From NCBI RefSeq assembly GCF_017348835.2, contig NZ_CP071375.1: a stretch of 64,000 nt of DNA. The stretch is one strand, 5' to 3'. This document shows, piece after piece, positions 1,199-4,246 of this stretch. Source of the stretch: Escherichia coli (lineage in GTDB: Bacteria > Pseudomonadota > Gammaproteobacteria > Enterobacterales > Enterobacteriaceae). A model generated the notes under the pieces. The model had not been told where the DNA came from. It did no database searches and saw only the letters and a program-made list of their open reading frames with translations. A program made the translations under genes and the position numbers. The stretch's first letter is position 1. Every line of letters starts with the position of its first letter.

Positions 1199-1311
1199 TT
1201 ATCATCATTCTTATTACCCATTTTTAATGAATTAAAGGGCTTTTAATACACCGCAGCAATAACAGGTTGAGTTATCTCAACACAAAGTAATAACCGTTAA
1301 GGGTGTAGCCT

Positions 1312-1407
1312 ATGATCAACACAAATATGAAATATTGGTCCTGGATGGGCGCGTTTTCTCTGTCGATGCTCTTCTGGGCCGAACTCCTCTGGATCATTAC
1401 TCACTGA
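1312..1407 (+). CDS. candidate small hydrophobic protein (31 aa, MINTNMKYWSWMGAFSLSMLFWAELLWIITH); possibly a ymi-family small protein
   Basis: ATG with AAGGG upstream; single predicted TM-like segment; followed 7 nt later by an intrinsic terminator; not in ORF track (below length cutoff). Confidence 0.4.
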   Translation: MINTNMKYWSWMGAFSLSMLFWAELLWIITH

Positions 1408-1413
1408 TCCCTG

Positions 1414-1434
1414 ACCCCGCTTCGGCGGGGTTTT
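1414..1434 (+). terminator. rho-independent terminator (ACCCCGC-TTCG-GCGGGGT + TTTT)
   Basis: GC-rich 7-bp stem, tetraloop, U-tract; sits between yciX/small ORF and acnA promoter. Confidence 0.55.
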
Positions 1435-1570: not shown

Positions 1571-4246
1571 ATGTCGTCAACCCTACGAGAAGCCAGTAAG
1601 GACACGTTGCAGGCCAAAGATAAAACTTACCACTACTACAGCCTGCCGCTTGCTGCCAAATCACTGGGCGATATCACCCGTCTACCCAAGTCACTCAAAG
1701 TTTTGCTCGAAAACCTGCTGCGCTGGCAGGATGGTAACTCGGTTACCGAAGAGGATATCCACGCGCTGGCGGGATGGCTGAAAAATGCCCATGCTGACCG
1801 TGAAATTGCCTACCGCCCGGCAAGGGTGCTGATGCAGGACTTTACCGGCGTACCTGCCGTTGTTGATCTCGCTGCAATGCGCGAAGCGGTTAAACGCCTC
1901 GGCGGCGATACTGCAAAGGTTAACCCGCTCTCACCGGTCGACCTGGTCATTGACCACTCGGTGACCGTCGATCGTTTTGGTGATGATGAGGCATTTGAAG
2001 AAAACGTACGCCTGGAAATGGAGCGCAACCACGAACGTTATGTGTTCCTGAAATGGGGAAAGCAGGCGTTCAGTCGGTTTAGCGTCGTGCCGCCAGGCAC
2101 AGGCATTTGCCATCAGGTTAACCTCGAATATCTCGGCAAAGCAGTGTGGAGCGAATTGCAGGACGGTGAATGGATTGCTTATCCGGATACACTCGTTGGT
2201 ACTGACTCGCACACCACTATGATCAACGGCCTTGGCGTGCTGGGGTGGGGCGTGGGTGGCATCGAAGCAGAAGCCGCAATGTTAGGCCAGCCGGTTTCCA
2301 TGCTTATCCCGGACGTAGTGGGCTTTAAACTTACCGGAAAATTACGTGAAGGTATTACCGCCACAGACCTGGTTCTCACTGTTACCCAAATGCTGCGCAA
2401 ACATGGCGTGGTGGGGAAATTCGTCGAATTTTATGGTGATGGTCTGGATTCACTACCGTTGGCGGATCGCGCCACCATTGCCAATATGTCGCCAGAATAT
2501 GGTGCCACCTGTGGCTTCTTCCCGATCGATGCTGTAACCCTCGATTACATGCGTTTAAGCGGGCGCAGCGAAGATCAGGTCGAGTTGGTCGAAAAATATG
2601 CCAAAGCGCAGGGCATGTGGCGTAACCCGGGCGATGAACCGATTTTTACCAGTACGTTAGAACTGGATATGAATGACGTTGAAGCGAGCCTGGCAGGGCC
2701 TAAACGCCCACAGGATCGCGTTGCACTGCCCGATGTACCAAAAGCATTTGCCGCCAGTAACGAACTGGAAGTGAATGCCACGCATAAAGATCGCCAGCCG
2801 GTCGATTATGTTATGAACGGACATCAGTATCAGTTACCTGATGGCGCTGTGGTCATTGCTGCGATAACCTCGTGCACCAACACCTCTAACCCAAGTGTGC
2901 TGATGGCCGCAGGCTTGCTGGCGAAAAAAGCCGTAACTCTTGGCCTCAAGCGGCAACCGTGGGTCAAAGCGTCGCTGGCACCGGGTTCGAAAGTCGTTTC
3001 TGATTATCTGGCAAAAGCGAAACTGACACCGTATCTCGACGAACTGGGGTTTAACCTTGTGGGATACGGTTGTACCACCTGTATTGGTAACTCTGGGCCG
3101 CTGCCCGATCCTATCGAAACGGCAATCAAAAAAGGCGATTTAACCGTCGGTGCAGTGCTGTCCGGCAACCGTAACTTTGAAGGCCGTATCCATCCGCTGG
3201 TTAAAACTAACTGGCTGGCCTCGCCGCCGCTGGTGGTTGCCTATGCGCTGGCGGGAAATATGAATATCAACCTGGCTTCTGAGCCTATTGGTCATGATCG
3301 TAAAGGCGATCCGGTTTATCTGAAAGATATCTGGCCATCGGCACAAGAAATTGCCCGTGCGGTAGAACAAGTCTCCACAGAAATGTTCCGCAAAGAGTAC
3401 GCAGAAGTTTTTGAAGGCACAGCAGAGTGGAAGGAAATTAACGTCACACGATCCGATACCTACGGCTGGCAGGAGGATTCAACCTATATTCGCTTATCGC
3501 CTTTCTTTGATGAAATGCAGGCAACACCAGCACCCGTGGAAGATATTCACGGTGCACGGATCCTCGCAATGCTGGGGGATTCAGTCACCACTGACCATAT
3601 CTCTCCGGCGGGCAGTATTAAGCCCGACAGCCCGGCAGGTCGATATCTACAAGGTCGGGGTGTTGAGCGGAAAGACTTTAACTCCTACGGTTCGCGGCGT
3701 GGTAACCATGAAGTGATGATGCGCGGCACCTTCGCCAATATTCGCATCCGTAATGAAATGGTGCCTGGCGTTGAAGGGGGGATGACGCGGCATTTACCTG
3801 ACAGCGACGTAGTCTCTATCTATGATGCCGCGATGCGCTATAAGCAGGAGCAAACGCCGCTGGCGGTGATTGCCGGGAAAGAGTATGGATCAGGCTCCAG
3901 CCGTGACTGGGCGGCAAAAGGTCCGCGTCTGCTTGGTATTCGTGTGGTGATTGCCGAATCGTTTGAACGAATTCACCGTTCGAATTTAATTGGCATGGGC
4001 ATCCTGCCGCTGGAATTTCCGCAAGGCGTAACGCGTAAAACGTTAGGGCTAACCGGGGAAGAGAAGATTGATATTGGCGATCTGCAAAACCTACAACCCG
4101 GCGCGACGGTTCCGGTGACGCTTACGCGCGCGGATGGTAGCCAGGAAGTCGTACCCTGCCGTTGTCGTATCGACACCGCGACGGAGTTGACCTACTACCA
4201 GAACGACGGCATTTTGCATTATGTCATTCGTAATATGTTGAAGTAA
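1571..4246 (+). CDS. acnA: aconitate hydratase A (891 aa)
   Basis: full-length ORF with AGGAGG RBS; aconitase family sequence recognised (e.g. [15 protein letters not shown]). Confidence 0.97.

Follow-up and report, generated by a model that had tools for sequence, protein, structure and literature searches.

The ymiC locus and its product

In the window, by which we mean the whole stretch of 64,000 nucleotides of Escherichia coli DNA analysed here (position 1 being its first letter), the 3' end of cysB is followed in the 5' to 3' direction by ymiA (888-1028), yciX (1031-1198), a spacer of 113 nt, ymiC and acnA (1571-4246). The gene annotation used is the RefSeq annotation of strain PE164, which is 100% identical and was carried over to the coordinates of the window. 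On the plus strand, ymiA and yciX, both taken from RefSeq, are the first and second genes of an operon reported previously (PMC11429745), and the downstream neighbour acnA, also on the plus strand and present in both the list of open reading frames (ORFs) and the RefSeq annotation, encodes aconitate hydratase A in an ORF of 891 aa.

The coding sequence of ymiC occupies positions 1312-1407 of the plus strand and comprises 31 codons and a TGA. It is supported by the sequence, by RefSeq, by the K-12 record, by the NCBIfam and Pfam families and by dN/dS. The gene opens with the ATG at 1312-1314 and closes with the TGA at 1405-1407, and its product, read from the sequence, is MINTNMKYWSWMGAFSLSMLFWAELLWIITH. 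A Shine-Dalgarno-like AAGGG, likewise read from the sequence, is located 8 nt ahead of the ATG (1299-1303, plus strand). The start codon, the upstream AAGGG, the 31-codon ORF and its stop had all been described in the initial annotation of this DNA, which was made from the letters alone, and all of them were confirmed. That annotation also spoke of a Trp-rich hydrophobic segment. Tryptophan does account for four of the 31 residues, but the hydrophobicity itself is moderate, as the best 19-residue Kyte-Doolittle window reaches a borderline 1.54 and the helix includes Glu24.

Taken by itself an ORF of 31 codons is not beyond chance, since 85 ORFs with a length of 20 aa or more fall wholly or partly in the first 5 kb. 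The significance of this one comes from its conservation and from published experiments. Two overlapping ORFs, of 60 aa on the plus strand (1335-1517) and of 50 aa on the minus strand (1297-1449), are without annotation, and the codon-position pattern favours the ymiC frame.

When positions 1200-1570 were compared by megablast with 5426 complete E. coli genomes, the region was present in 5421 of them, and at least 5415 of the 5426 are annotated at the matched region with "ymiC: small membrane protein YmiC". A look at the K-12 annotation for a gene of the ymi family had been proposed as a check, and MG1655 does carry ymiC (b4741, 1335572-1335667) at what corresponds to positions 1312-1407. The gene lies between yciX and acnA and on the same strand in the annotations of PE164, Nissle and K-12. 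The protein, which has a UniProt entry (YMIC_ECOLI), matches the Pfam family PF23694 "YmiC-like" over residues 1-31 of 31 (87.4 bits, E = 4.8e-25) and the NCBIfam equivalog NF041484 over residues 3-31 (66.3 bits, the cut-off being 42). The ORF and hairpin between yciX and acnA are therefore the already annotated and experimentally confirmed ymiC, a known gene and not a novel one. Nevertheless, a reader with nothing but the sequence recovered a 31-codon gene that the annotation of E. coli had lacked until 2018.

The experiments are already in the literature. Ribosome start-site data and epitope tagging had both been suggested as checks, and tetracycline-inhibited ribosome profiling places an initiation peak at U00096.2 position 1333596, the ATG of exactly this 31-aa ORF (PMC4909307, supplement file 3), while VanOrsdel et al. 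in 2018 tagged the ORF in the chromosome, detected the protein and named the gene ymiC (PMC6001520). YmiC is moreover one of 17 small proteins induced in low Mg2+. Its induction depends on PhoQ and is driven from the region upstream of ymiA, the promoter activity directly upstream of ymiC being negligible, and ymiA-yciX-ymiC is reported as a PhoQP-dependent operon (PMC11429745). In the same study GFP-YmiC was found at the cell periphery, and deletion or overexpression of ymiC was without phenotype. The proposal of a small single-pass membrane protein gene agrees with the RefSeq name and with the published tagged and GFP-tagged proteins. A pattern search for PhoP boxes was uninformative, as it gave 154 matches against 126 +/- 12 expected and the sites upstream of ymiA (802-829) had three mismatches each.

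Conservation of the ymiC frame

Among 1.84 billion representative proteins ten relatives of YmiC were obtained with E up to 0.001, so that the family can be regarded as narrow. The names of the clusters put these relatives in Escherichia, Kosakonia, Enterobacter and Yokenella. In addition, ymiC was found just upstream of acnA in loci of Citrobacter amalonaticus and Lelliottia nimipressuralis. A degenerate 21-mer scan of genome contigs gave four relevant loci among the matches listed, the others being mostly chance. The order topA-cysB-ymiA-yciX-ymiC-acnA is kept in Kosakonia, Enterobacter and Yokenella, with a gene of 56 aa in the position of yciX in the first two genera and yciX not called in the third. 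The AAGGG ahead of the start is kept in Escherichia, and the remaining genera have a GGTG-type sequence.

From the KYWSW motif to the stop, a core of 25 codons aligns without gaps in nine sequences, and its variable columns are distributed over the first, second and third codon positions as 15, 10 and 21. The dN/dS of this core is 0.07-0.25 where dS could be estimated, dS being saturated in the other pairs. Lack of conservation of the frame across Enterobacteriaceae had been named as the finding that would count against the gene; the frame is conserved, and the pattern of substitutions shows that purifying selection acts on it in six enterobacterial genera. Conservation is seen at KYWSW, F, S, (F/I)W, (E/Q)L and, in most cases, one more W, and the five to seven residues at the N-terminus are variable. 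In Enterobacter a His replaces the internal Met6, and translation in that genus must therefore begin at the upstream ATG.

Some unusual forms of the locus were also encountered. In strain EC931 an IS1A (2613-3402 of its locus) lies in the 3' end of ymiC, which alters the C-terminus and parts the gene from acnA. A rare damaged variant is seen in strain VCSW7, whose ymiC carries an internal stop and is annotated as a pseudogene. An assembly of Terrisporobacter mayombei includes a contig of 454 bp, probably contamination, with 98% identity to the E. coli ymiC region, and a contig labelled E. coli SCPM-O-B-8794 is just 88.7% identical in this region, which suggests a divergent Escherichia lineage.

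The hairpin downstream of ymiC and its alleles

On the plus strand, positions 1413-1440 hold a hairpin resembling an intrinsic terminator, identified by folding, by a terminator scan and by conservation. Its stem (1413-1420 with 1425-1432) closes a UUCG loop and is followed by the interrupted T-tract TTTTCATTTG (1431-1440). The arms are ACCCCGC (1414-1420) and GCGGGGT (1425-1431) on either side of the loop TTCG (1421-1424), and with the additional G1413-U1432 pair the stem counts eight pairs, six of them G-C. The predicted fold has -15.5 kcal/mol and a z of -3.2, a stability that was not reached in any of 200 shuffles. The terminator scan also reports the hairpin, which passed the loose criterion of five T in eight. 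A terminator after the stop had been anticipated, at a spacing of 7 nt; the G+C-rich hairpin stands, but the gap between the stop and A1414 is six bases. The stem ACCCCGC-TTCG-GCGGGGT was likewise read correctly, whereas the term "textbook" for its TTTT was overstated, since the T-run is short and interrupted: of four T in total (1431-1434) the first is paired in the stem, which leaves a free tail TTT-CA-TTTG.

The hairpin is present 3' of ymiC in all genera examined, a few bases past the stop, with the exception of C. amalonaticus where it is found about 137 nt past the stop, beyond an insertion. The inserted DNA, about 135 bp in length, contains internal inverted repeats and may be a small repetitive element. 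In most of the relatives the flanks are A-rich on one side and T-rich on the other (AAAA...TTTTTT), with T-runs longer than in Escherichia. After the hairpin the U-tract is UUU-CA-UUUG in the window, U-G-UCAUUUG in K-12 and 6-7 U in the other genera. Alignment of the hairpins gave nine consensus pairs, one of them compensatory, from U-A to C-G via U-G.

Within E. coli the hairpin varies. The exact 50-nt sequence of the window, with the UUCG loop and TTTT, occurs in only two of the 5426 genomes, and the allele of the window is thus unusual in the species. The majority is the K-12 type, with a UGCG loop, the sequence TTGTCATTTG and a T-run broken as TTGT (3125 exact matches among the 5426). A UGCG loop combined with TTTT is carried by roughly 15-18% of the 5426, an estimate obtained from an evenly spaced sample. 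Finally, 1142 of the 5426 genomes (21%), Nissle and an O25b:H4-ST131 strain among them, have a 14-bp deletion that takes away the 3' arm of the hairpin and the T-run. A rare read-through form of YmiC, 63 aa long with the stop mutated, was seen on this deletion allele.

From this structure and its conservation we infer that the hairpin would be the intrinsic terminator of the ymiA-yciX-ymiC unit, separating it from acnA, and termination there is probably leaky in much of E. coli. Among the RNA 3' ends listed for K-12 in the supplements of PMC7815308 none falls at 13356xx-13357xx, a range that includes the hairpin and its U-tract (near 1335690-1335700), and K-12 carries the weaker allele. Strict separation of the unit from acnA cannot be a necessity, given that 21% of E. 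coli genomes lack the hairpin. It is conceivable, though rather doubtful, that the hairpin works as a valve, differing naturally in strength, between the PhoQP-induced ymiA-yciX-ymiC (together with the distal acnA promoter) and acnA, strong in the related genera and in the window's rare allele, leaky in the TTGT majority and absent from the genomes with the deletion. If this were true, aconitase A would be co-induced by low Mg2+ to a degree that depends on the lineage. In any case a terminator eroded or deleted in most E. coli and intact in related genera offers a natural allele series for read-through from a Mg2+-stress operon into acnA.

Leader structure, acnA and the role of the locus

The leader, ymiC and the hairpin are matched together, as one RNA, by the Rfam model RF02079 (STnc180) at 1239-1441 of the plus strand, with 200.2 bits, where the gathering score is 50, and over the full model (1-208). 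Eight further loci score 73-198 bits with this model at the corresponding place. Its 5' half corresponds to a structured leader (1247-1307, plus strand) that is supported both by independent folds and by the Rfam consensus structure. In the outer stem UACACC (1247-1252) pairs with GGUGUA (1302-1307), thereby taking in the two G at the end of the Shine-Dalgarno AAGGG, and an inner hairpin pairs 1266-1271 with 1276-1281. When minimum-energy folds were computed independently for eight lineages, the outer stem (UACAC box with GGUGU) was obtained in seven of the eight, and an inner hairpin at the same place, of genus-specific sequence, also in seven. These folds agree with the STnc180 consensus. 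RNAalifold applied to a MAFFT alignment of the leader returned no pairs, the alignment being poor. The outer stem ties up part of the ribosome-binding site, and RNA structure may in this way keep the translation of ymiC low.

The initial annotation had offered, as an alternative, that the terminator marks the 3' end of a small RNA. Such an entity does have a counterpart in STnc180, a candidate that came from Salmonella RNA co-immunoprecipitated with Hfq and converted to cDNAs, but blots of STnc180 gave signals of 500-2000 nt only, and its discoverers considered it to be likely a processed mRNA species (PMC2515195). To us the conserved structure indicates that the ymiC message has a structured leader, which may limit translation or be a site of processing, and we do not take it as evidence for a non-coding RNA gene.

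Regarding acnA, Cunningham, Gruer and Guest (1997) reportedly placed a distal promoter, P1, 407 bp and a proximal promoter, P2, 50 bp upstream of the coding region. P1 would presumably correspond to about position 1164, inside yciX, in which case ymiC and the hairpin would lie in a long acnA leader and an effect in cis would be possible. The proximal promoter we take to lie downstream of the hairpin, in a conserved block at about 1465-1525. This block (TTTATCAATTTGGGTTGTTATCAAA...TGTTTGTGTTATCTTTAATATTCACCC) is nearly invariant in Escherichia, Citrobacter and Lelliottia and presumably represents the proximal promoter with sites for regulators. A small hairpin, CAGGGCTTCGCAACCCTG (1537-1554), is found directly ahead of the ribosome-binding site of acnA. 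Just past yciX there is in addition an AT-rich block (about 1195-1235, TTATCATCATTCTTATTACC), conserved in Escherichia and partly in Citrobacter, which coincides with a predicted cluster of Fur sites 371 nt upstream of acnA (17.6 bits; PMC2189734). The initial annotation had remarked that the unit could affect the expression of acnA. This has an echo in the literature, where ymiC-acnA is given as a possible case of upstream-ORF regulation and belongs to the validated small ORFs that are followed by an RNA 3' end within 200 nt. The K-12 3' end linked to it, 1335835, equals position 1575, 5 nt into acnA, and is flagged 'uORF' and not Rho-dependent (PMC7815308).

Two other explanations of the locus have to be weighed. 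In the first, the main product of the locus would be a small regulatory RNA, the roughly 200-nt STnc180, which would have its 3' end at the hairpin and act through base pairing with Hfq, and the ORF would be incidental or secondary as in a dual-function RNA. The RF02079 match at 200 bits, its presence in all genera tested and a leader structure that is conserved with differing inner hairpin sequences, together with the origin of STnc180 in Hfq-bound Salmonella RNA (PMC2515195), would fit this. We nevertheless consider it very unlikely: the blots point to processed mRNA (PMC2515195), the negligible promoter activity directly upstream of ymiC (PMC11429745) does not suit an independent RNA gene, and the YmiC protein is made and localised in the membrane (PMC4909307, PMC6001520, PMC11429745). 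Moreover the substitution pattern is that of a coding frame, and the fold of the whole RNA is weakly better than that of shuffled sequences (z = -1.84).

It is also improbable, in our judgement, that ymiC is mainly a cis-acting upstream ORF, the translation of which would set the formation of the hairpin and termination, and hence read-through to acnA from the ymiA promoter and the distal P1. Although the stop is 6 nt from the hairpin, so that a ribosome terminating there would mask the 5' arm, and although the strength of the hairpin differs between E. coli lineages, a stop with a terminator close behind it is the ordinary layout of an operon end. Moreover it is the peptide sequence that is conserved and not merely an ORF, and the proximal promoter of acnA lies 3' of the hairpin, where the block at about 1465-1525 is strongly conserved. 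Since the peptide is conserved, the protein detected and the proximal promoter separate, a cis effect on acnA is a secondary reading. The listing of ymiC-acnA with a 3' end at position 1575 speaks for upstream-ORF regulation, but this mapped end is not where the hairpin of ymiC lies and was classed as not Rho-dependent (PMC7815308), and YmiC accumulates and goes to the membrane (PMC6001520, PMC11429745).

We are thus highly confident that the feature is ymiC, a real gene for a 31-residue single-helix protein of the inner membrane, the last one of the ymiA-yciX-ymiC unit and followed by an operon-end hairpin. According to the published work, transcription starts at the promoter upstream of ymiA and increases in low Mg2+ in a PhoQ-dependent manner, and translation begins at the ATG at 1312, the GFP-tagged product being found at the cell periphery. 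The leader stem, holding part of the ribosome-binding site, may restrain this translation, and the hairpin 6 nt past the stop would end the unit and keep it separate from acnA. What is added to this known gene is minor, namely the series of hairpin alleles and the equivalence between STnc180 and the message of ymiC.

Compared with YmiC of K-12 (b4741), the protein of the window has an identical 31-aa sequence and the same position between yciX and acnA, under accession WP_001310756.1 in the sampled strains. The two genes differ only 3' of the stop, where the window has the UUCG loop and an unbroken TTTT and K-12 has the UGCG loop and TTGT. The hairpin is similar to operon-end intrinsic terminators in its 8-bp G+C-rich stem, tetraloop, T-rich tail, 6-nt gap and conservation across genera, whereas the Escherichia version departs from them in its short or interrupted T-run and in being absent from one in five E. 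coli genomes. The RNA described here shares with the Rfam entry STnc180 the locus, the extent (1239-1441), a full-length match and the same predicted stems. However, Rfam files STnc180 as an sRNA gene, while the RNA described here holds a translated and conserved ORF and the original study took it as part of longer mRNAs (PMC2515195). STnc180 and ymiC are one locus, and the Rfam entry is best read as the structured mRNA of a small protein.

YmiC can also be compared with other small membrane proteins of E. coli, MgrB and MgtS, which are likewise induced through PhoQP in low Mg2+. Partners and phenotypes are known for MgrB and MgtS, whereas for YmiC there are none so far (PMC11429745). The likeness is drawn from features of the class and not from sequence, namely the size class, a single predicted helix, localisation in the membrane and induction (PMC11429745), and by this analogy YmiC probably binds and modulates a larger membrane protein.
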